This document shows positions 2,500 to 15,217 of a stretch of DNA of 15,630 bases, piece by piece. The stretch is from positions 1-15,630 of the forward strand of contig NZ_JBMFJI010000020.1 in the NCBI RefSeq assembly GCF_049973875.1, written 5' to 3'. This DNA comes from Acidilobus sp. (GTDB lineage Archaea; Thermoproteota; Thermoprotei_A; Sulfolobales; Acidilobaceae). Every line of letters begins with the position of its first letter. Positions within the stretch are counted from its first letter, which is position 1. Position numbers and translations under genes: made by a program. Under the pieces are notes generated by a model. It had not been told where the DNA came from. It did not search any database and saw nothing but the letters and a program-made list of their open reading frames with translations.

Positions 2500-2712
2500 G
2501 TGGGATCGCCCAAGAGGGCGCGTAGCTGGGCGATAGTTGGAATAGTCGCTCTCTTGATATTTGCCGTCTACGTGTGGCCGTGGTACAGCCTCGTCCACCC
2601 AACCCTGGCGGGTCTGCCGTTCTTCTACTGGTGGGTCATAGTCTGGTACGTCATCTCGTCCGTCCTCCTCTACTCTATAGTCAAGTACAGGGTTAAGGGG
2701 GATGCATCATGA
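2500..2712 (+). CDS. Small 2-TM membrane protein, DUF3311-like accessory subunit of SSS transporters
   Basis: 70 aa, two hydrophobic helices rich in W/Y/P (WPWYSLVHPTLAGLPFFYWWVIVWY). Stop overlaps the symporter start (ATGA at 2709-2712). Confidence 0.6.
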   Translation: MGSPKRARSWAIVGIVALLIFAVYVWPWYSLVHPTLAGLPFFYWWVIVWYVISSVLLYSIVKYRVKGDAS

Positions 2713-4202
2713 TGACTCCTGATGGCCTGCAGCTTCTGGCGGTATTCCTGGCCCTGTTCGCGGTGTTCGCAGTAATCGGGTTCCTGGGCAGGTACTACAG
2801 GAGGGCCGACCTATCGCAGCTCCACGAGTGGGGCCTTGCCGGCAGGAAGCTCGGGACCGCCCTTCAGTTCTTCCTCCAGGGCGCGGACTTGTTTACGGCG
2901 TACGCAATACTGGCCATACCCTCGGCCGTCTTCGCCCTAGGAGCCTTCGGCTTCTTCGGCGTCGCCTGCGAGGCGATGGTGCTCGCCTTCGTAAGCCTCT
3001 ACATGCCGAGGCTGTGGAGGCTTTCTAGGGACAAGGGCTACATAACCATAGCTGACTACGCCAGGGGCGAGTTCAACAGCACGCTCCTCTCCCTCACCAT
3101 AGTAATACTTGGCATATTTGCTACGCTCTTCTACATAGCCCTGCAGGTCGACGGGCTCTACACGATCCTCGGCACCCTGATGCTCAAGGCGTTCCAGATC
3201 TCCCCGACCTCGCCTGCATTCAAGGAGTACAGCGTTGTGATGCTGTTCGTGACGTTCGCCATTATCGCCGCCTTCTCGTTCACCAGCGGGATAAGGGGCG
3301 TGTCGCTAGGCGCCATATTCAAGGACGTCCTCGTGTGGACTGGCCTGCTGACGGTCATAGTCGTTACCCTAGCAGCCCTGAAGGGCTTCTCTAACCTCTT
3401 CGCTGGCATGCCTTCATATTACCTCTCGCTCCCGAGCGCCAAGGCCCTCGCTTTCACTTCGAGCATGCTTGGCATGGTCTTCTCGGCCTACCTATGGCCC
3501 CACAACATAACTGGCTCCTGGGCGGCCCAGAGCGAAGAGAAGCTCCTGAAGGGGTACGCCCTGACCGTACTCTACGCCATACCGCTTGCCCTGGCCGACG
3601 TGCTCGCCATAGCAGTCTACAAGCTACCCACAGTCTACAGCTTCATAAAGCCGCTCCCACCTGACTCGAGGGGACTTTATGTAATACCGGCTCTCCTCGT
3701 TAGCCTCGTCCCCGGCTGGCTGGCAGGGATAGCACTGCTTGGCATCTTCGTTGGCGGCCTGGTGCCGGCAGCCCTGATGGCCGTGACCGTCGGCAACATG
3801 ACCGGCAGGGACCTGGCGAGGATCGTCAAGCCAGGCATATCTCCCAGGGGCCAGACGACGATAGCTAAGTGGGCAGCTGTTGCATTCGCCTTCCTGTCAC
3901 TGGCGCTCCTCCAGGTCATACCTATGACCTACGCGTTCCAGTTCTACCTGGTCGGCGCTGAGATAGTCCTCCAGTTCCTGCCCATCGTCGTCATACACCC
4001 GTTCTTCAGGTTCATAAGGAAGGAGCTCGCGATCGCCGGCATCTGGGTAGGTTCAATAGTGTCGATCCTACTGACCCTCTACGCTAACCACTTCGGCACG
4101 ATTAAGACGACGCTGTACCATGACATATACACCGGCTTCTTTGGCCTCGCCGTCAACCTAGTCATCGTCTTCCTTAGCCTCGCCTTCCCCAAGGGGCAGT
4201 GA
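2709..4202 (+). CDS. Sodium:solute symporter (SSS/SSF) family transporter
   Basis: 497 aa, about 13 TM helices. N-terminal GLAGRKLG...GADLFTAYAILAIPSAVFALG and the following PRLWRLSR...YITIADYARGEF stretch are typical SSF motifs. Confidence 0.85.
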   Translation: MMTPDGLQLLAVFLALFAVFAVIGFLGRYYRRADLSQLHEWGLAGRKLGTALQFFLQGADLFTAYAILAIPSAVFALGAFGFFGVACEAMVLAFVSLYMPRLWRLSRDKGYITIADYARGEFNSTLLSLTIVILGIFATLFYIALQVDGLYTILGTLMLKAFQISPTSPAFKEYSVVMLFVTFAIIAAFSFTSGIRGVSLGAIFKDVLVWTGLLTVIVVTLAALKGFSNLFAGMPSYYLSLPSAKALAFTSSMLGMVFSAYLWPHNITGSWAAQSEEKLLKGYALTVLYAIPLALADVLAIAVYKLPTVYSFIKPLPPDSRGLYVIPALLVSLVPGWLAGIALLGIFVGGLVPAALMAVTVGNMTGRDLARIVKPGISPRGQTTIAKWAAVAFAFLSLALLQVIPMTYAFQFYLVGAEIVLQFLPIVVIHPFFRFIRKELAIAGIWVGSIVSILLTLYANHFGTIKTTLYHDIYTGFFGLAVNLVIVFLSLAFPKGQ

Positions 4203-6738: not shown

Positions 6739-9300
6739 TTGAGAGCATGCGCCGACCTGGGCCCTGACCTGACGCCCACCTGCATAAACGTTGAGCTCAC
6801 AGACGAGGCCCTGCTGGCGGACGGCAAGGTAATAGCCAGGCTCAGCGACGTCAGGAGGGCCTTCGTGGAGCCGGGGGTTAACGTCAGCAGGCTGGTCCTC
6901 GAGCTGAACGACGGGAGGCAGGTGGAGGCCCTCTACTTCACCAGGCCGAGGGAGGACGACTTCAGGAGGATGGCTGAGGCCATAAACAGGAGGCTCAGCG
7001 TTGGGGGCGAGGGCAGGGGCGAGGGCCGCGGGGGAAGGGAGAGGAGGGCGAGCACGGTAAGGTGGCTCTACACCTTCGCTAGGCCCTACAGGAGGAGGCT
7101 CATAATAGGCACCTCCCTGGCGCTTGCGGCGACGGCCCTCAACCTGGTGCCCCCGTACCTGCTGAAGGTGCTCATAGACAGCGTACTTGAGAGCCCGGCC
7201 CACCCGCGCGGCCTCTTCTTGGAGCTCATAGCCACCCTCCTGGGCTCCTACGTGGCGCTGACCATAGTGTCCGCCGTTCAGAACTACGTGCTGAACTCCA
7301 CGGGCTCCATGATAATAAACCACATAAGGCACGAGCTCTACAGGCACGTAGTAAACAACGTCGAGGCGTCGTTCATAGACAGGGTGACGCCGTCAAGGAT
7401 ACTCTCAAGGCTCACCACGGACGCCGGGAACACGAACTGGCTCATGGTCTGGGGGCTGCCTACCGTGCTGACCAACGTGCTCACGGTGATAGGCATAGGC
7501 GTCATACTGTTCACCATGGACGCCAGGCTGGCCATCTACCTGGTCATACCGGTGCCCCTGGTGGCCTACATGATATACAGCTACAGGAGGAAGTCGCACA
7601 GGCTCTACCACAGGAACTGGAGGAACAGCGCCGACGTCACGTCGCTAATAAACGACACCGTGCCCAACTACGTGGTGATAAGGTCCTTCGGCAAGGAGGA
7701 GGCCGTCAGCTCAAGGCTTGAGTCGGGCCTCAGGAGGCTCCTCAGGTCAAGCATAGACATAACAATCATGAACCAGACCTACTGGCCCCTCCTGGGCTTC
7801 CTGCTCTCCCTGGCCACGGTGGTCATATGGTGGGTCGGCGGCACGGAGGTCATAAGCGGCGCGGTTAAGCTGGGCGTCCTGGTGGCCTTTGTAGCCTACG
7901 CGAGCCAGTTCTACGCGCCAATAAACAACCTGGGCAACGTGCTCCCCTTCGTCCAGCAGTCCCTGACCTCGGCGGACAGGCTCAGGGAGCTGCTCGAGGC
8001 CCCCGCCTCAGGCCAGGGAGGCAGTGAGAGGCCCAACATGAGGGGCGACGTGGAGTTCAAGGACGTGATCTTCGGCTACGACCCGCTGGTCCCCGTGGTC
8101 AAGGGAGTGAACATAAGGGTCAGGGGAGGCTCGAGGGTAGCAATAGTGGGCCGCTCCGGCTCCGGCAAGAGCACCCTGGTCAAGCTCCTCCTCGGCCTCT
8201 ACAGGCCCCAGGAGGGCTCAATAACCGTTGACGGCGTCGACGTGAGCAGGATTGACAGGAGGTACTTCATGTCGAGGGTCGCCTACGTGCCCCAGGACGT
8301 CACACTGTTCTACGACACCATTGGGAACAACATAGCCTTCGGGGCGGAGAGGCCCGTGGGTCCCAGGGAGGTAATAGAGGCCGCCAGGGCCGCCATGATA
8401 CACGGCGAGATAGTCCAGTTCCCGCTGGCATACGACACAATAGCAGGCGAGAGGGGCACGTACCTCTCGGGCGGGCAGAGGCAGAGGGTCGGGATAGCGA
8501 GGGCCCTCATAAAGGACCCAGACCTCGTCATACTTGATGAGGCCACGTCAAACCTTGACGTTGAGAGCGAGACGCTGGTGTACCAGGCCATAACTAACCT
8601 GACAAGGGGGAGGACCACCATAATGATAACTCACAACCCGGTGGAGATCATGGGGGCCGAGCAGGTTGTGGTTATGGAGGACGGCAGGGTTGTTGAGGTA
8701 GGCACGCCGAGGGAGCTCATGGAGTCCCGCGGCAAGCTCTACGAGCTCATGTCGTCCTACGGCTACAGCAAGTACGTCCCACCCCCGCCCCCCAGGCCCA
8801 TGAGGGAGGCCCCGATAATAGAGGACCCGTCGGCGGTCAAGGTCATGCCCTCGGGCAGGGGGAGCCTGGTGGACGTAAGCATAGACGGGGTCGCGCACAG
8901 GGGCCTGAGGCCCAAGCTGCTCTTCCCGATCACTCACCCCGAGGTGGTTGGCCTCTACGACGGCGAGGGCAACGAGGTGGCCATAATACTTGACATGAAC
9001 AGGCTGGACGAGGCCTCCAGGAGGGCCTTAACCGACGCCATAAGGAGGGGCCTGGTGAAGTACAGGGTCTCCAGAATCAAGGACATAGTTGCCACGGGCG
9101 ACGGGCTCTCGTGGAGGGTGATAGCAGTGGACGGCTCCAGGAGCTTCGAGGCCTCCGTGCTGTCCCAGAGCAGGGGCGACGTCCTGCTGCTGAACAACAG
9201 GATAGCCGTGATAGACAGCAGGAGCGGCGTGATATACGAGGTCTACCCTGACCAGCTCGACGGCAGGAGCCTTAAGCTGCTCAGGGAGACCGTCGGCTAA
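6739..9300 (+). CDS. ABC exporter half-transporter (6-TM TMD plus NBD) with an extra N-terminal and two C-terminal PH-like modules
   Basis: TMD begins at LYTFARPYRRRLIIGTSLALAATALNLVPPYLLKVLID. NBD has Walker A GRSGSGKST, signature LSGGQRQR, Walker B LVILDEATS and H-loop ITHN. The N-terminal 105 aa, and the roughly 165 C-terminal aa after a PPPPPRP linker, are mutually similar modules (...DGRQVEALYFTRPREDDFRRMAEAINRRL vs ...EGNEVAIILDMNRLDEASRRALTDAIRRGL). GGGAG lies 7 nt before TTG 6739. Confidence 0.9.
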   Translation: MRACADLGPDLTPTCINVELTDEALLADGKVIARLSDVRRAFVEPGVNVSRLVLELNDGRQVEALYFTRPREDDFRRMAEAINRRLSVGGEGRGEGRGGRERRASTVRWLYTFARPYRRRLIIGTSLALAATALNLVPPYLLKVLIDSVLESPAHPRGLFLELIATLLGSYVALTIVSAVQNYVLNSTGSMIINHIRHELYRHVVNNVEASFIDRVTPSRILSRLTTDAGNTNWLMVWGLPTVLTNVLTVIGIGVILFTMDARLAIYLVIPVPLVAYMIYSYRRKSHRLYHRNWRNSADVTSLINDTVPNYVVIRSFGKEEAVSSRLESGLRRLLRSSIDITIMNQTYWPLLGFLLSLATVVIWWVGGTEVISGAVKLGVLVAFVAYASQFYAPINNLGNVLPFVQQSLTSADRLRELLEAPASGQGGSERPNMRGDVEFKDVIFGYDPLVPVVKGVNIRVRGGSRVAIVGRSGSGKSTLVKLLLGLYRPQEGSITVDGVDVSRIDRRYFMSRVAYVPQDVTLFYDTIGNNIAFGAERPVGPREVIEAARAAMIHGEIVQFPLAYDTIAGERGTYLSGGQRQRVGIARALIKDPDLVILDEATSNLDVESETLVYQAITNLTRGRTTIMITHNPVEIMGAEQVVVMEDGRVVEVGTPRELMESRGKLYELMSSYGYSKYVPPPPPRPMREAPIIEDPSAVKVMPSGRGSLVDVSIDGVAHRGLRPKLLFPITHPEVVGLYDGEGNEVAIILDMNRLDEASRRALTDAIRRGLVKYRVSRIKDIVATGDGLSWRVIAVDGSRSFEASVLSQSRGDVLLLNNRIAVIDSRSGVIYEVYPDQLDGRSLKLLRETVG

Positions 9301-10478: not shown

Positions 10479-10901
10479 TCATATGTAGAGGACCACATCG
10501 GATGAGGCGGCCTCGCTGAGGAAGGTGGCGACCCCGGCTACGTCGTCTACTAGGCCTGGGTCGAAGTCCTCCTTTCTAAGGCCGAGCATGTCAGCCACGA
10601 GGCTGCACGCCACGACCCTCACCTTGCCCTCCCTCTTGGCGTCCCTCAGCATCGAGTGCCAGCTCACGTTCTTCTGCGACAGGTACTTCATGGCCGCGTC
10701 CCTGTACTCCTCGTAGTCCTTGCCGAGCTTCGAGAACCTCTCGACCTCGCCCCTCCTGAAGGCCACCTGGGCGAAGCTGAGGAAGATGAAGACCTCCATG
10801 CCCTCAGCAACCGCGCCCTGGGCTATCACCGCGGCCGAGAGGAGCTTCTCGTAGGTCGGGGATATGAGGAATATCGAGACCTTCCCCGCCAAGCCCCGCA
10901 C
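10479..10901 (-). CDS. DsrE/DsrF-like family protein (putative sulfur-relay or peroxiredoxin-like fold), single Cys
   Basis: N-terminal GKVSIFLISPTYEKLLSAAVIAQGAVAEGMEVFIFLSFAQVAF fits the DsrE-family start (KVAIIVSSGPY...AL.FA.AA...GHEV.VFF). One conserved-looking Cys (VVACSLVAD). GTG start, with T-tracts after the stop. Confidence 0.55.
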   Translation of the reverse strand: MRGLAGKVSIFLISPTYEKLLSAAVIAQGAVAEGMEVFIFLSFAQVAFRRGEVERFSKLGKDYEEYRDAAMKYLSQKNVSWHSMLRDAKREGKVRVVACSLVADMLGLRKEDFDPGLVDDVAGVATFLSEAASSDVVLYI

Positions 10902-10954
10902 CCACTTTCTATAAATAGAGAGGGTCCATTTATTTTTTCTATTTAGAGAAAAAC
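10902..10954. promoter_or_regulatory. 53-bp AT-rich divergent promoter region shared by the DsrE-like gene (-) and the Flp-encapsulin gene (+)
   Basis: CTTTCTATAAATAGAG and TTTATTTTTTCTATTTAG lie between the two GTG starts (10901 minus, 10955 plus). TATA-like elements on both strands sit about 25-30 nt from each start, consistent with leaderless transcripts. Confidence 0.5.
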
Positions 10955-12097
10955 GTGCAGCTCACGGCTTGGCCCCTTCACCTCCCACGACGGTATACCA
11001 ATATTAACCTGCAGCTCCACAAAGTCGCGGTGCGCCGCTTGCTCTCAAGGAATCCAACGGAGCCCTCTCAGAAGATTGAGGGCTCAGGGGTGGCCCAGGC
11101 GGTGAGGCTTGCCATAATAGCCGAGCTCGACGCCATAAACCTCTACCAGCAGCTCGCCGACGCCGTGAGCGACGAGTCCGTGAGGAAGGTCCTCCTTGAC
11201 GTGGCCGGCGAGGAGAAGACCCACTTCGGCGAGTTCCTCGAGCTCCTCAGGAGGCTCGACCCGGAGCAGGTCAAGGAGCTCGAGGCCGGGTCCAAGGAGG
11301 TGGCTTCGCTGGTCAGCAGCCAGGGGAAGGGACAGGGAGGCAGCCCGGGGGACCCCCAGCCCCTTGGGCCCCTGAGCGGCGACGAGGCCGAGTCCCTCAG
11401 GTCGGCCATAGCCGAGGCCCTGGGCAGGGCCAGGGCCCTGAGGTCGTCCCTGCCAGTGGCGGTGCTGGGAGACGGCTCCCTCGTGGCCCCATCAGAGGCC
11501 ATAACTGAGGGGGACGTGATTAAGGCCTCCTCCCAGCCAGTGCAGCTCTCAAGGCTCATAACCTACTTCGACGTGGAGCAGGACCTCATAGACTACTCCC
11601 GCAGGCTCTCCGCCCCCCTCAGGCCCGCCTCCGCCATCAGGGCGGCCGAGCTCCTCGGCCTCGAGGAGGACGCGCTCATAGCCAGCTCGCTGGCCTCCTC
11701 GGCCTCAGTTAAGGAGAGCGGCAGCTGGTCGTCCCCAGGCTCGTTCACCTCCCTCCTGGCCAAGGCCCTGGAGGACCTGAAGGTCAGGTACCCCTCCTAC
11801 CTGCTGATAATTTCCCCCTCGACGAGGGCCAGGCTGGCCTCGGTTGTTGACCCAGCCGGGGTTGACGAGCTGAGCAGGGCCTCGAGGCTGGTCGACAGGG
11901 TCGTCGTCTCCCCCGGCGTGGGCGACGGCGTGGCAATACTGGTCCCGCCCTACCCTGACGTAGCTGACGTGGTGGTGGGCTCGGACCTGAGGCTTGACTA
12001 CCTTGGCCCCAGCGGAAGCTCCCACAGGTTCGCCGTCTGGGAGACCGTAGCCGTGAGGGTCAAGTCGCCCCAGGCCATAGCCGTAATTACGGGCTGA
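10955..12097 (+). CDS. Encapsulin (family 1 nanocompartment shell) with N-terminal fused ferritin-like protein (Flp) domain; PfV-type
   Basis: The N-terminal region VRLAIIAELDAINLYQQLADAVSDESVRKVLLDVAGEEKTHFGEFLELLRRLDPEQ is a ferritin-like half-bundle with an ExxH motif, closely resembling the Pyrococcus PfV N-domain. The C-terminal region (VVVGSDLRLDYLGPSGSSHRFAVWETVAVRVKSPQAIAVI) matches the encapsulin C-terminus (GQDLSIGY...[21 protein letters not shown] in T. maritima). A Gly/Pro/Ser linker joins the domains. The start is leaderless, after an AT-rich divergent promoter. Confidence 0.85.
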   Translation: MQLTAWPLHLPRRYTNINLQLHKVAVRRLLSRNPTEPSQKIEGSGVAQAVRLAIIAELDAINLYQQLADAVSDESVRKVLLDVAGEEKTHFGEFLELLRRLDPEQVKELEAGSKEVASLVSSQGKGQGGSPGDPQPLGPLSGDEAESLRSAIAEALGRARALRSSLPVAVLGDGSLVAPSEAITEGDVIKASSQPVQLSRLITYFDVEQDLIDYSRRLSAPLRPASAIRAAELLGLEEDALIASSLASSASVKESGSWSSPGSFTSLLAKALEDLKVRYPSYLLIISPSTRARLASVVDPAGVDELSRASRLVDRVVVSPGVGDGVAILVPPYPDVADVVVGSDLRLDYLGPSGSSHRFAVWETVAVRVKSPQAIAVITG

Positions 12098-12131
12098 TTT
12101 TTATTTATAATTATTTTTATTTATAATTATT
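12098..12131 (+). repeat. Perfect 16-bp direct tandem duplication (TTTTTATTTATAATTA x2 plus TT): oligo-T terminator plus duplicated TATA boxes between the encapsulin and aglB genes
   Basis: 12098-12113 and 12114-12129 are identical. Begins immediately after the encapsulin TGA (12095-12097). Each unit contains TTTATAA. aglB starts at 12176. Confidence 0.85.
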
Positions 12132-12175
12132 CACAAAGTATTTTAAGTTGGCCCCCATAATTTTCGTGAGACGAC

Positions 12176-14491
12176 TTGATGAGGATGAAGAACTTCAAAG
12201 GCGCCCTGGAGTACGTCCTGCTTGCCCTGGTCGCGGCCCTCACGGCAGCCCTGAGGCTCGTGCCGTACCTGAGGTACGGGCCAACGCTCAGCGAGGTAGA
12301 CCCATATGAGTACCTCTGGCTTGCTAACTACTTCTACTCCCACGGCCTCGGCGGCCTCCATGGCCTTGCCCACTCGGCCCTCTGGTGGTACCCGTGGGGC
12401 AGGGACTTCCTGAGCAGCGAGTACCTCGGGCTCCCGTGGCTCTCGGCCCTGGCCTCAAGGCTCACGGGGGCCAGCGTCGAGGTCGCCCTCTCGCTGTCCC
12501 CGGCGGCTTTTGCGGTGCTCGGCGTGGTCGGCGTCTACCTGGCCGTGAAGGAGGCCGGGGGCAGCTCCGTGGCTGCCCTGACGGCCGCGGCCGGCTTCGC
12601 CTTCCTGCCGATAACTGTGCTGAACCACGGCTTTGCCACCGACCCGGCCAAGGTCTTTGACGGCATAGCCCTGCTCCCCTACCCGCTCTACTTCATAGCC
12701 AGGTCGTACAGGGCGCCGAAAGCGACCACGTCAATAGCGATGGCGGCCGCTGCCGGGGCGTCGGGGGGACTCATAGCTTGGTTCTGGGGAGGCTACCAGT
12801 ACATGGCCCTCGTCGTGGCCCTGTTAGCGGTAACTGAGCCGTTCCTGAACGAGCCCTCCCTGCAGGGCCTCCTGAGGCTGCTCGCCGCCTGGGCGGCCTT
12901 CGCTGCCGTGGCCCTGACCTCGCCGGCGGTGAGCCTCCACCTCTTCACCAGGGGGGTCGGGCTGGCGGCCGAGGCGTCGCTGCTCGCCTACGCCTTTGAG
13001 TACCTCGCGCTTACCAGGCTCACGGGCCTCAGCAGGCTCAGGGTGCACGCGTGGACCCTGGCAGTGTTGGCCGGCCTCGCGGCGGTCGCCGTGGCCTCAG
13101 GCATGGTGAGCCTCCCCTCCAGGGTCCTCATGGGCCTCGGCGTGACCCCGCCGCCCGGGGCTGTGGTGCCCCTGACCGTGCAGGAGTACATGGGCGTCCC
13201 GCCGCAGCAGGTGATATCATCGTATGCGCCCTTCTTCGTCCTGTCGCTGATAGGCGTGGTGATCATGATAGCGGGCAGGGCGACCGGGAGGCTGACCCCC
13301 TCCCCCACCGACGCCATAGCCGCGGTGTCGCTGGAGCTCATGATAGTCTTCACCTACGCCTCCGTCAACCAGGCCTACTACCTGCCGTCGGCGGCCCTCT
13401 ACGCGATAATAGCTGGGGGCGTCTCAATAGCCCTGGTCGGGTCGCTCAGGCCAGCTTATGCCGCCGCGAGGCGCCGCAGGCCCCAGCAGGCCACCGCCGG
13501 CAGGGGCGCGGCGATAGGGGCCGCCCTGCTGGCGGCCATGGTGTTGGCGTCCATGGCCTACTACGCCTACGTTGACTACAGCGCTCTACAGCTCGAGGCG
13601 CCCTCGATAGAGACCGGCTGGCTCGGGGCCCTGAGGTCCCCCGACGGGAAGGTGATAGTTCCAGTCAACAACGCCTGGCCCCTCGCCCTCAGCTACGTCA
13701 GGAACGAGACGCCCCCGGGCTCGGTGGTGGTGACCTGGTGGGACTACGGCTACTGGGTGGGCGTCCTGGCCAACAGGGCGTCGGTTGTCGACGGCTCAAC
13801 TATAAACGGCACCCAGATAGAGCTCGTCGCCGACGCCCTCACGGCCCCCGTTGAGCAGTCAGGGGCCTACCTGAGGATGCTGAGGCTCCCGACAAACGAG
13901 ACGTACGTCATGGTATATGACGTCTTCCTCGGCATATACGACAACTCCACGGGCTCCGTGACCATAATGCCCTTCCCCAACGTGGTCAGCGTGGGCCCAG
14001 GGGTCTACGCCGTGACCTACGGCCTGGGCGACATGGCCAAGTCATACCAGATGCTCAGGATAGCCGGCAGGGTCAACCCTTACTCGGGCCAGGCGCTGTT
14101 CACCGGCTACTCCTCCGTCAGCTACCAGTCCAACGTAGAGGTCCTCCAGTTCCCCGGCCTCGCGGGCAGCCCGGCCAAGAACGTGAGCAACACGCTCAAC
14201 ACCACCATATACGACCTCATCATGTACGGCCTCTCGCAGCTGGGCAGGTACGGCGTCCTGGGCCAGGGGGCCTCGTGGCTCAGGAGCGCCTCCTCGTTCA
14301 CCCCGGCGGCCGTGGCCTACGTGGACCCCACGGGCAGCATGGCCCCGGCCCCAGTCAGCGCCCCGAGCCCTGAGCCCTACTACGTGCCCGTGGCGTTCTT
14401 CGTCTCTGTGCCCTACTCGTGGCAGGGGCCCGGGGTCACGTACTTCTACGCGGTCATAGTGTTCCTCTACAGGTGGGGAGGACTGCCTTAA
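12176..14491 (+). CDS. aglB: AglB, archaeal oligosaccharyltransferase (STT3 family)
   Basis: 771 aa with a multi-TM N-terminal domain containing a DPYEY (EL1 Asp) motif. WWDYGYW catalytic motif in VVVTWWDYGYWVGVL. Large C-terminal extracytoplasmic domain with several N-x-S/T sequons. Confidence 0.9.
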   Translation: MMRMKNFKGALEYVLLALVAALTAALRLVPYLRYGPTLSEVDPYEYLWLANYFYSHGLGGLHGLAHSALWWYPWGRDFLSSEYLGLPWLSALASRLTGASVEVALSLSPAAFAVLGVVGVYLAVKEAGGSSVAALTAAAGFAFLPITVLNHGFATDPAKVFDGIALLPYPLYFIARSYRAPKATTSIAMAAAAGASGGLIAWFWGGYQYMALVVALLAVTEPFLNEPSLQGLLRLLAAWAAFAAVALTSPAVSLHLFTRGVGLAAEASLLAYAFEYLALTRLTGLSRLRVHAWTLAVLAGLAAVAVASGMVSLPSRVLMGLGVTPPPGAVVPLTVQEYMGVPPQQVISSYAPFFVLSLIGVVIMIAGRATGRLTPSPTDAIAAVSLELMIVFTYASVNQAYYLPSAALYAIIAGGVSIALVGSLRPAYAAARRRRPQQATAGRGAAIGAALLAAMVLASMAYYAYVDYSALQLEAPSIETGWLGALRSPDGKVIVPVNNAWPLALSYVRNETPPGSVVVTWWDYGYWVGVLANRASVVDGSTINGTQIELVADALTAPVEQSGAYLRMLRLPTNETYVMVYDVFLGIYDNSTGSVTIMPFPNVVSVGPGVYAVTYGLGDMAKSYQMLRIAGRVNPYSGQALFTGYSSVSYQSNVEVLQFPGLAGSPAKNVSNTLNTTIYDLIMYGLSQLGRYGVLGQGASWLRSASSFTPAAVAYVDPTGSMAPAPVSAPSPEPYYVPVAFFVSVPYSWQGPGVTYFYAVIVFLYRWGGLP

Positions 14492-14524: not shown

Positions 14525-15217
14525 TTGGACTCCCCCTCAAGGCTAGCCAGGGAGCTCGCTAAGGAGCTGGAGTCGGAGCCGTCGGCAGAGGAGTTCGCCA
14601 AGAGGTGCCTTAACTCCATGAGGTGGGGAGGCAGCGCGGTCCTCATGGTTGTTGACGCCTCCTTCACGTCGGCGGGGCTCAGCTACTTCACCGCCGTGGT
14701 CCCCAGGGTGCTCAGGTTCAAGGAGGAGCTCGTGGACTCTGGCATGATAAGGGGGCTGGAGGACCTGGCCTCGGCCGACGAGGGCCTCCTGCTGAGGTAC
14801 TGGAGGAACAGGAGGTCGTGGTCAGTGGCCAAGGGGGTCGCCTCCTCGCTGCTCAGGTTCGGGGACGACGACAGGTCAAGGCTCAGGTCCTGGGCGGCCC
14901 AGTCAAGGCTTGACGGCTGGAGGTCGGACCCCGTGGGCTCGGTCAAGGGGGTGGGGCTCATAACTTACCAGTACCTCAGGATGATGGGGGGCGTGGACAC
15001 CGCCATGCCTGACAGGATAGTCAAGAAGTACGTTCAGGCCGTGGGGGAGAGGGCCGGGGTGCCGGTGCCGCGGGGCGACGTGGAGTTCGTGAAGTTCCTC
15101 GAGTCCCTGAGGCAGTACGGAGTCAGCCCCGTCGCGGTCACCTGGCTCTCGTGGCTTAAGCTTTCAGAGGGCGAGGAGGTGCTGAGAAGGTACGGGAACC
15201 TGGTTAACCTGCTTTAG
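14525..15217 (+). CDS. HhH-GPD superfamily DNA glycosylase-like protein (no Fe-S cysteines, no hairpin Lys)
   Basis: VKGVGLITYQYLRMMGGVDTAMPDRIVKKY resembles the EndoIII helix-hairpin-helix LPGVGRKTA...VDTHVFRV, with Asp at the corresponding spacing. N-terminal SAVLMVVDASFTSAG resembles EndoIII ELLIAVLLSAQATD. About 230 aa. No C-terminal Cys cluster. Confidence 0.45.
   Translation: MDSPSRLARELAKELESEPSAEEFAKRCLNSMRWGGSAVLMVVDASFTSAGLSYFTAVVPRVLRFKEELVDSGMIRGLEDLASADEGLLLRYWRNRRSWSVAKGVASSLLRFGDDDRSRLRSWAAQSRLDGWRSDPVGSVKGVGLITYQYLRMMGGVDTAMPDRIVKKYVQAVGERAGVPVPRGDVEFVKFLESLRQYGVSPVAVTWLSWLKLSEGEEVLRRYGNLVNLL

Follow-up and report, generated by a model that had tools for sequence, protein, structure and literature searches.

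The window analysed here is the whole 15.6-kb stretch of DNA (15,630 nucleotides, contig NZ_JBMFJI010000020.1), and the element in question is a gene that joins a ferritin-like domain (Flp, here called EncFtn) to the shell protein of an encapsulin. An open reading frame (ORF) of 380 codons with a GTG start runs as a single uninterrupted frame from 10955 to 12097 on the forward strand, as described in the original prediction, and all sequence strings quoted there were recovered from it, namely the helix AIIAELDAINLY, the motif EEKTHFGEF, a Gly/Pro/Ser-rich stretch and the C-terminus ...FAVWETVAVRVKSPQAIAVITG. Residue numbers given below refer to a protein of 352 amino acids read from the TTG codon at 11039, the start that is argued for further below, while ORF residues are those of the 380-aa numbering. 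The whole region is collinear with a second locus (L001, Logan DRR667212), whose proteins are 94-99% identical to those of the window and whose encapsulin is 95% identical. The features of the locus are compiled in Table 1.

Table 1. Features of the window discussed in the text, with their positions, strands and the evidence or remarks belonging to them.
Feature	Position	Strand	Evidence or remark
MctP-like permease gene (497-aa ORF)	2709..4202	+	NCBIfam MctP (monocarboxylate uptake permease) 7.7e-86, under the equivalog cut-off
Fused ABC transporter gene (853 aa)	6739..9300	+	transmembrane domain and ATPase, C-terminal DUF1854; kept in L001
DsrE/DsrE2-like gene (140 aa), divergent	10479..10901	-	Pfam DrsE_2 1.9e-14; NCBIfam DsrE2 2.8e-09, under cut-off
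AT-rich core of the spacer that separates the divergent DsrE-like and encapsulin genes	10902..10954	.	72% AT
First 28 codons of the maximal ORF	10955..11038	+	most likely not translated (5' leader or promoter)
Flp(EncFtn)-fusion Family 1 encapsulin gene	11039..12097	+	352 codons and TGA stop; TTG start
EncFtn/Flp domain	11084..11326	+	residues 16-96 (352-aa numbering); Pfam, NCBIfam, 5N5E, AlphaFold2
Residue span of the di-iron ferroxidase centre	11123..11224	+	homology, invariance in 66 sequences
Flexible tether	11315..11359	+	residues about 93-107 (SSQGKGQGGSPGDPQ)
HK97-fold encapsulin shell domain	11360..12094	+	residues 108-352; Linocin_M18, encap_f1, Foldseek
T-rich intergenic tract directly 3' of the encapsulin stop	12098..12175	.	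78 nt, 77% AT
AglB/STT3-type oligosaccharyltransferase gene (771 aa)	12176..14491	+	Pfam STT3-PglB_core 2.6e-07; TIGR04154 archaeo_STT3 1.5e-10
230-aa ORF	14525..15217	+	AlphaFold2 and Foldseek

In a search against the chain sequences of the PDB, the top match was 2E0Z, the virus-like particle protein of Pyrococcus furiosus (PfV), with an E-value of 8.4e-44 and an alignment from end to end (ORF residues 44-378, residues 18-344 of the chain). The next match was the excised EncFtn domain of the same organism (5N5E, E = 7.6e-23), and further matches comprised EncC of Myxococcus xanthus and many Family 1 encapsulin shells. Among the Pfam models, Linocin_M18 (PF04454) matched ORF residues 181-366 with 53.2 bits (cut-off 24.3 bits, E = 3.3e-14, profile positions 60-253 of 253). 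For the N-terminal part, EncFtn-like (PF22277) with 36.9 bits and Rubrerythrin (PF02915) with 30.2 bits both matched ORF residues 51-110, compared to cut-offs of 27 and 22.8 bits. The checks of both halves of the protein proposed in the original prediction therefore turned out in its favour, the C-terminal part scoring over the cut-off of the encapsulin model and the N-terminal domain comprising the ExxH-bearing helical hairpin in addition to its family matches.

The same picture was obtained from the predicted structure. The AlphaFold2 model, which was built on an alignment of 66 sequences, showed a mean predicted local distance difference test (pLDDT) of 90.7 and a predicted template modelling score (pTM) of 0.70, and consists of three N-terminal helices, a disordered segment and an alpha/beta domain. 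In this single-chain model the EncFtn helices a1 (residues 16-42), a2 (46-73) and a3 (75-96) reached a pLDDT of 93-97, and values below 50 were found at residues 93-105 in the tether. The shell domain begins with an N-arm (PLGPLS) and an N-terminal helix (residues 114-131), followed by the E-loop, the P-domain and the A-domain. Compared to the PDB with Foldseek, the model matched best to 2e0z_A (E = 2.9e-20, target-normalised template modelling score (TM) of 0.85, root-mean-square deviation (rmsd) of 2.7 A), and the remaining top 50 matches were all encapsulin shells or engineered encapsulin cages, which confirms the HK97 fold that the structure prediction had been expected to give. The rmsd amounted to 2.6-3.8 A for T=3 and T=4 conformers (PfV, M. 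xanthus T=3, Q. thermotolerans) and to 5.5-6.2 A for T=1 shells (T. maritima, M. tuberculosis, H. ochraceum), a comparison that hints at a T=3 assembly like that of PfV.

A homologue search of 5.8 billion proteins gave 89 relatives, nearly all of them with 335-388 amino acids and both domains, and more than 60 homologues share the fused two-domain architecture. Those with names are designated as 'family 1 encapsulin nanocompartment shell protein' or 'encapsulin' and belong to Pyrobaculum, Vulcanisaeta, Caldivirga, Pyrofollis, Thermosphaera, Thermofilaceae, Acidilobus and Caldisphaera, while a near-identical metagenome protein (P0001) was labelled only 'rubrerythrin' by the Joint Genome Institute (JGI). 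Identities to proteins of named genomes range from 35% to 52%, and values of 62-100% were reached only by the metagenome proteins P0001-P0004. The closest proteins of GTDB species representatives (50-52%) originate from metagenome-assembled genomes (MAGs) of Caldisphaera and Acidilobus, and the product of the 230-aa gene nearby shares 66-76% identity with proteins of Acidilobus MAGs. These nearest named relatives, of which Acidilobus belongs to the Acidilobales within the Thermoproteota, point to an uncultured, Acidilobales-like source and agree with the crenarchaeon that had been suspected. In one homologue of 388 aa (P0007), a stretch of about 37 residues in the region of the shell N-helix and E-loop is repeated without any difference (FLRALQDARRLRAVIPLVSLGPGAIAAPRGSVTDDDVVRS twice), which may stem from an error of assembly or from a genuine tandem duplication.

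Altogether, the PfV-type fusion of an EncFtn domain with a Family 1 HK97 shell, which formed the core of the original prediction, is supported by the Pfam, NCBIfam and PDB matches, the homologues, the AlphaFold2 model and the Foldseek comparison. Every class feature tested at the level of sequence and fold was found in the gene, except for a score over the NCBIfam equivalog cut-off.

The residues of the putative iron site are encoded by the codons 11123-11125 (Glu29), 11144-11146 (Tyr36), 11213-11215 (Glu59) and 11222-11224 (His62). Together with Glu58, Ala28 and Asp31 they are invariant in 66 of 66 fused homologues from the Thermoproteota, and their spacing is the same as in the aligned sequences of PfV and of the P. 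furiosus EncFtn domain (Pfc_EncFtn), in which a di-iron centre is held by the equivalent Glu and His residues and which forms a ferroxidase-active decamer (10.1101/431494). The signature D54-xxx-E58-E59-x-T61-H62 is present as DVAGEEKTH and fits the pattern DxxxEExA(T)H, which is the signature of the archaeal fusion-FLPs (PMC11202242). Ala28 and Asp31 correspond to the reduced 'entry site' of the PfV type; Pfc_EncFtn comprises Ala31 and Asp34 in place of an acidic 'entry site' (10.1101/431494).

Based on these data, the gene product is with high confidence a Family 1 'Flp-fusion' encapsulin that would work as an iron-oxidising compartment. The approximately 245 C-terminal residues adopt the HK97 fold and, by homology to PfV, would self-assemble to a T=3 shell of 180 subunits and about 30 nm. 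The EncFtn domain of each subunit is situated at the lumenal N-terminus on a disordered tether of about 15-20 residues, and the architecture as such shows a covalent 1:1 loading of the cargo, for which no targeting peptide is needed. Pairs of EncFtn domains would form a symmetric di-iron ferroxidase centre at the dimer interface from Glu29, Glu59 and His62, with Tyr36 nearby. Fe(II) would enter via the shell pores and be oxidised at the EncFtn centre, and the Fe(III) formed there would be deposited as a mineral inside the shell, which would result in iron storage and in protection from Fenton chemistry. We infer the chemical steps from the invariant residues and from the biochemistry of the systems of P. 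furiosus, R. rubrum and M. xanthus.

Several observations weigh against this interpretation. The shell domain is merely about 25% identical to PfV, and all NCBIfam models remained under their curated cut-offs, though with E-values from 7e-24 to 6e-17. The equivalog model encap_f1 (NF041155) reached 61.9 bits compared to a cut-off of 100 bits (E = 5.8e-17) and was matched only at model positions 61-260, EncB_fam reached 84 of 90 bits (E = 7.2e-24) and ferrit_encaps 69 of 125 bits. Since the scores fall short in this way, the fused archaeal branch is considered divergent from the mostly bacterial seed sets, and the shortfall of encap_f1 is ascribed to this divergence and not to another fold; RefSeq names fused homologues with 36-41% identity as family 1 encapsulin shell proteins, evidently without applying this cut-off to them. 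As regards function, Pfc_EncFtn was the slowest ferroxidase among the three EncFtns assayed, which the authors tie to the Ala/Asp residues (10.1101/431494). Furthermore, the fit of 180 tethered domains, corresponding to 18 D5 decamers, in a T=3 shell is unexplained (PMC8346489, PMC11202242), and no iron-related neighbour gene was found in the window, unlike at many Flp-fusion loci, which are reportedly located beside ferritin-like or rubrerythrin genes (PMC8346489).

The low turnover connected with the reduced Ala/Asp entry site would also agree with another role of the same compartment, namely that in an anaerobic or microaerophilic hyperthermophile it mainly detoxifies O2, H2O2 or Fe(II) in the manner of a rubrerythrin and does not serve bulk iron storage. 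The additional match of the domain to Pfam Rubrerythrin and the JGI label of P0001 point in the same direction. However, in all EncFtn-encapsulin systems that have been characterised, iron is deposited as a mineral inside the shell, and neither the protein nor the adjoining genes comprise a peroxidase-type partner or a rubredoxin-like domain. Storage and protection are not mutually exclusive. A compartment devoted mainly to detoxification is considered possible but rather unlikely.

Besides the iron site, the connection between the two domains deserves attention. The hypervariable segment from helix a3 to the N-arm of the shell (PLGPLS) comprises 20 residues; in the family it varies from 12 to 35 residues, with a median of 18. 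The Gly/Pro/Ser-rich linker pointed out in the original prediction is present, but its composition, which had been regarded as noteworthy, is not unusual: in this family comparison, 20 residues are typical and both the length and the low-complexity composition of the tether are ordinary. PLGPLS was also considered as a vestigial targeting peptide. This possibility was rejected, as the motif was judged to be the N-arm of the shell protein itself, presumably comparable to FAPLT or LAPIS at the N-terminus of unfused encapsulins.

Within the tether, Asp105 and Pro106 (11351-11356) form a dipeptide that recurs in the family. An Asp-Pro dipeptide was observed in the tether (alignment columns 100-145) of 47 of the 66 proteins, compared to 9.1 +/- 2.6 expected from 2000 composition-preserving shuffles, for which the maximum was 19, and Asp-Pro-Pro was observed in 25 of 66 compared to an expected 0.9. 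After clustering at 60% identity, the dipeptide was retained in 19 of 30 clusters. The residues beside it vary freely, and several proteins lacking it showed Asn-Pro at a similar position. None of the 31 stand-alone relatives of the EncFtn domain, whose chains stop right behind helix a3, contains it, and as far as shown by the 2E0Z alignment the linker of PfV lacks it as well. Among the papers of the library searched, none pairs 'encapsulin' with 'Asp-Pro'.

The mundane explanation would be that Asp-Pro(-Pro) acts as a helix stop or as a polyproline spacer. The Asp-Pro bond is the chemically most labile peptide bond, in particular at high temperature and low pH. Because of this lability, the motif could also represent a built-in heat- or acid-labile scission site, at which the assembled particle cleaves itself and releases the EncFtn domains into the lumen. 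Such a self-scission is regarded as improbable and is proposed here only tentatively. If it were true, the freed EncFtn could form D5 decamers unconstrained by the icosahedral symmetry, the mismatch of 180 tethered domains and 18 decamers would be resolved, and the fusion would be a loading device instead of a permanent tether. Among all items described for this gene, the Asp-Pro motif of the tether is the sole one that could bear on the arrangement or release of the 180 Flp domains in a T=3 shell.

For the start of the gene, the comparison with L001 was the most informative. In the first 84 nt of the maximal ORF (10955-11038), eight substitutions were found, which are distributed over codon positions 1, 2 and 3 as 2/5/1, and all six changed codons are non-synonymous (none synonymous). 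From 11039 on, the 351 aligned codons showed 9/8/39 substitutions at the three positions, and of the changed codons 35 are synonymous and 14 non-synonymous. Accordingly, the share of the third position rises from 1 of 8 substitutions to 39 of 56. The 84 nt evolve like non-coding DNA, and the gene is therefore most likely to be read from TTG 11039 (residue 29 of the 380-aa ORF) to 12097 as a protein of 352 aa, which by the same substitution counts is under purifying selection. This start is also the one shared by independent data: the JGI gene call of P0001 and the call of the 95%-identical P0002 both begin at ORF residue 29, and homologues of at least ten genera begin at the motif M-LS(R/K)NPxEP without any extension, as for example MLSRNPLEP, MLSKNPLDP, MSRNPVEP, MVFSKNPVD and MFARHPLE. 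A start at 11039 leaves about 15 residues ahead of helix 1, as in PfV. A GGTG is located 7-10 nt 5' of the TTG, and a TATA-like element (AATATTAA) lies at about 11001-11008 inside the excluded stretch. GTG 11030 may be an alternative start.

If the full 380 aa were translated from GTG 10955, the N-terminus would be longer by about 28-40 residues, as a feature specific to this lineage. Such a start would be compatible with the frame, which stays open from this codon on in L001 as well as in the window, and a TATA-like TTTATTTTTT about 25 nt 5' of this codon would suit a leaderless mRNA. However, the DsrE-like gene on the opposite strand could use this element just as well, and with the non-coding-like substitution pattern, the gene calls and the N-termini of the homologues all against it, this start is very unlikely. 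Consequently, the 40-aa N-terminal extension which the original prediction had held worth documenting is an artefact of reading the longest ORF, and the gene model has to be corrected from 380 to 352 aa.

The protein encoded by 11039..12094 comprises no Cys, no internal Met and only two residues each of His, Trp and Asn, so that the iron ligand His62 is one of just two His. Ser, Leu, Ala and Val together account for 48% of the residues. This composition probably results from a mix of high-GC and thermophile bias.

On the 5' side of the maximal ORF, the AT-rich core of the intergenic region contains the TATA-like boxes TATAAATA (10910-10917), TTTATTTTTT and TATTTAGA and is identical in L001 (100%, no substitution in 53 nt), and it is a putative divergent promoter region common to the DsrE-like and the encapsulin genes. 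Directly 3' of the stop codon, the T-rich tract starts with a perfect 16-nt tandem duplication (TTTTTATTTATAATTA twice, 12098-12129), which is present as a single copy in L001. This tract is probably an archaeal T-run terminator, the TATA region (promoter) of aglB, or both. Because of the AT-rich TATA-like elements on the 5' side and the T-rich tract behind the stop, the encapsulin gene looks like a transcription unit of its own.

The original prediction had also described the DsrE-like gene and aglB as direct neighbours, and both assignments were confirmed by Pfam and NCBIfam, the adjacency being kept only in L001. When all neighbours in the window were compared by tblastn with 13 loci of fused encapsulins (L001-L013), neither of the two genes was found beside the encapsulin in the 12 further loci (L002-L013), and in L002 no aglB lies between the encapsulin gene and the next gene. 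A functional partnership of the DsrE-like protein and AglB with the encapsulin was therefore rejected in favour of local synteny. A link to defence systems was likewise not observed, as PADLOC found nothing among the neighbours. The other genes of the window encode a family III CoA-transferase, an enoyl-CoA hydratase, an amidohydrolase, a B3_4-domain protein and a small membrane protein. For the 497-aa ORF, no Pfam match was obtained at E <= 0.01. Together, the MctP-like permease, CoA-transferase and enoyl-CoA hydratase genes suggest a cluster for the utilisation of organic acids.

In a rival view, the product of the gene would be the main capsid protein left behind by a degenerated provirus of the HK97 type, or a virus-like particle that the cell has domesticated and that has no metabolic function. 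PfV and the Sulfolobus homologue were at first interpreted in this way, and for the S. solfataricus protein 'Fossil record of an archaeal HK97-like provirus' is cited in PMC8346489. The viral HK97 fold of the shell domain and the deposition of 2E0Z as 'Virus-like particle' would agree with this view. It is hardly credible here, however, and a prophage origin was rejected, since the 15.6-kb window contains no terminase, portal, protease or integrase gene or other viral gene, no tRNA that could serve as integration target and no Rfam family, the identifiable neighbours are all cellular and keep their synteny in L001, the gene is under purifying selection, and a decaying provirus would not keep the fused EncFtn catalytic site invariant in 66 sequences.

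The 230-aa ORF on the far side of aglB showed no match to Pfam, NCBIfam, PADLOC or PDB sequences. It belongs to a family with more than 1,150 matches of about 229 aa, none of them a named protein, which are approximately 50% identical over Thermoprotei, Bathyarchaeia, Thaumarchaeota, Korarchaeum, Verstraetearchaeota and Freyarchaeota, and in which a G142-V143-G144 hairpin and Asp158 are invariant. Its AlphaFold2 model reached a pLDDT of 94 and a pTM of 0.91, and the top 20 Foldseek matches in the PDB were all HhH-GPD DNA glycosylases (Ogg2 TM1821/MjOgg, AlkA, Mag1/2, MutY), with weak scores (best E = 6e-3, TM 0.56-0.61). According to the model, it is probably a member of an uncharacterised archaeal family of HhH-type DNA glycosylases. 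The gene adjoins an encapsulin in L001, L002 (1142-1828) and L004 (5448-6149) and a stand-alone 98-aa EncFtn in a Bathyarchaeia contig (L036, 754-1494). Unrelated genes surround it in four further lineages (VIT1 and a helix-turn-helix protein; V-ATPase A and ribosomal S8; EVE/DUF365; VTT/HMP). A dedicated partner of the encapsulin was considered and rejected based on the size of the family, these unrelated neighbourhoods and a locus (L052) without encapsulin within 4 kb, and the pairing looks like local synteny and not like a functional module. As a side observation, the Bathyarchaeia contig contains a regularly spaced repeat at 41-680, one frame of which reads SNRTKVELK repeatedly, and which looks like a CRISPR array beside the glycosylase-like and EncFtn genes.

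The literature already describes this architecture from Archaea, for the most part from Crenarchaeota (PMC8346489), so its presence in this genome is expected and the gene is an ordinary new member of its class. It adds one Acidilobales-like lineage to a catalogued and in part structurally characterised class of ferritin-encapsulins, which alone carries little weight. Two points concern annotation: the label 'rubrerythrin' given to the near-identical JGI protein shows that automatic annotation can err, and the equivalog cut-offs of NCBIfam miss the fused archaeal branch.

Compared to known systems, the gene stands closest to the Flp-fusion encapsulins, a subclass of Family 1 that is found only in Archaea, mostly in Crenarchaeota, and forms T=3 shells in P. 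furiosus and S. solfataricus (Andreas & Giessen 2021, PMC8346489). PfV (PF1192, PFC_05175; 2E0Z and 5N5E) comprises the same domain order in 345 aa compared to 352 aa here, an identical AIIAELDAINLY helix, the same Ala/Asp variant of the entry site and the same Glu/Glu/His iron ligands, and it is the best structural match of the shell domain. The differences lie in the host, which belongs to the Euryarchaeota in the case of PfV and to the Thermoproteota in the case of the window, in the low identity of the shells and in the linker, which is charged (...TGIEAHINDNKKEESNVEY...) and devoid of Asp-Pro in PfV, whereas the Gly/Ser/Pro-rich linker with Asp-Pro found here is unrelated in sequence. The crenarchaeal members of the class (Pyrobaculum, Vulcanisaeta, Caldivirga and the Acidilobus and Caldisphaera MAGs) share the architecture, the invariant residues, the MLS(K/R)NP start and a variable linker with the gene; the ferritin or rubrerythrin neighbour often reported for them is missing at this locus.

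The two-component systems of R. rubrum, H. ochraceum, M. xanthus (EncA/B/C) and T. maritima have the EncFtn fold, the di-iron site, the shell fold and presumably the chemistry in common with the fused protein. In these systems, however, the cargo is a separate protein that carries a C-terminal targeting peptide and is loaded sub-stoichiometrically, while here it is fused 1:1 and carries no such peptide, and the secondary metal sites read HxxxEExEH there compared to DxxxEExTH here (PMC11202242). Finally, the stand-alone EncFtn proteins ('s-FLP', for example NE0167, PDB 3K6C), whose encapsulation status is unsettled in the literature (PMC11202242), are 92-116 aa long and 46-64% identical to the EncFtn domain of the window. 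The 31 loci collected for them (L014-L047) belong to Bathyarchaeia, Nitrososphaeria, Asgard archaea, Thermoplasmata, Aminicenantes, Planctomycetota and Zixibacteria, and none showed a linker or a recognisable targeting peptide. In all of them the protein stops directly after helix a3, which is the point at which the fused protein continues into its tether, the Asp-Pro motif and the shell domain.

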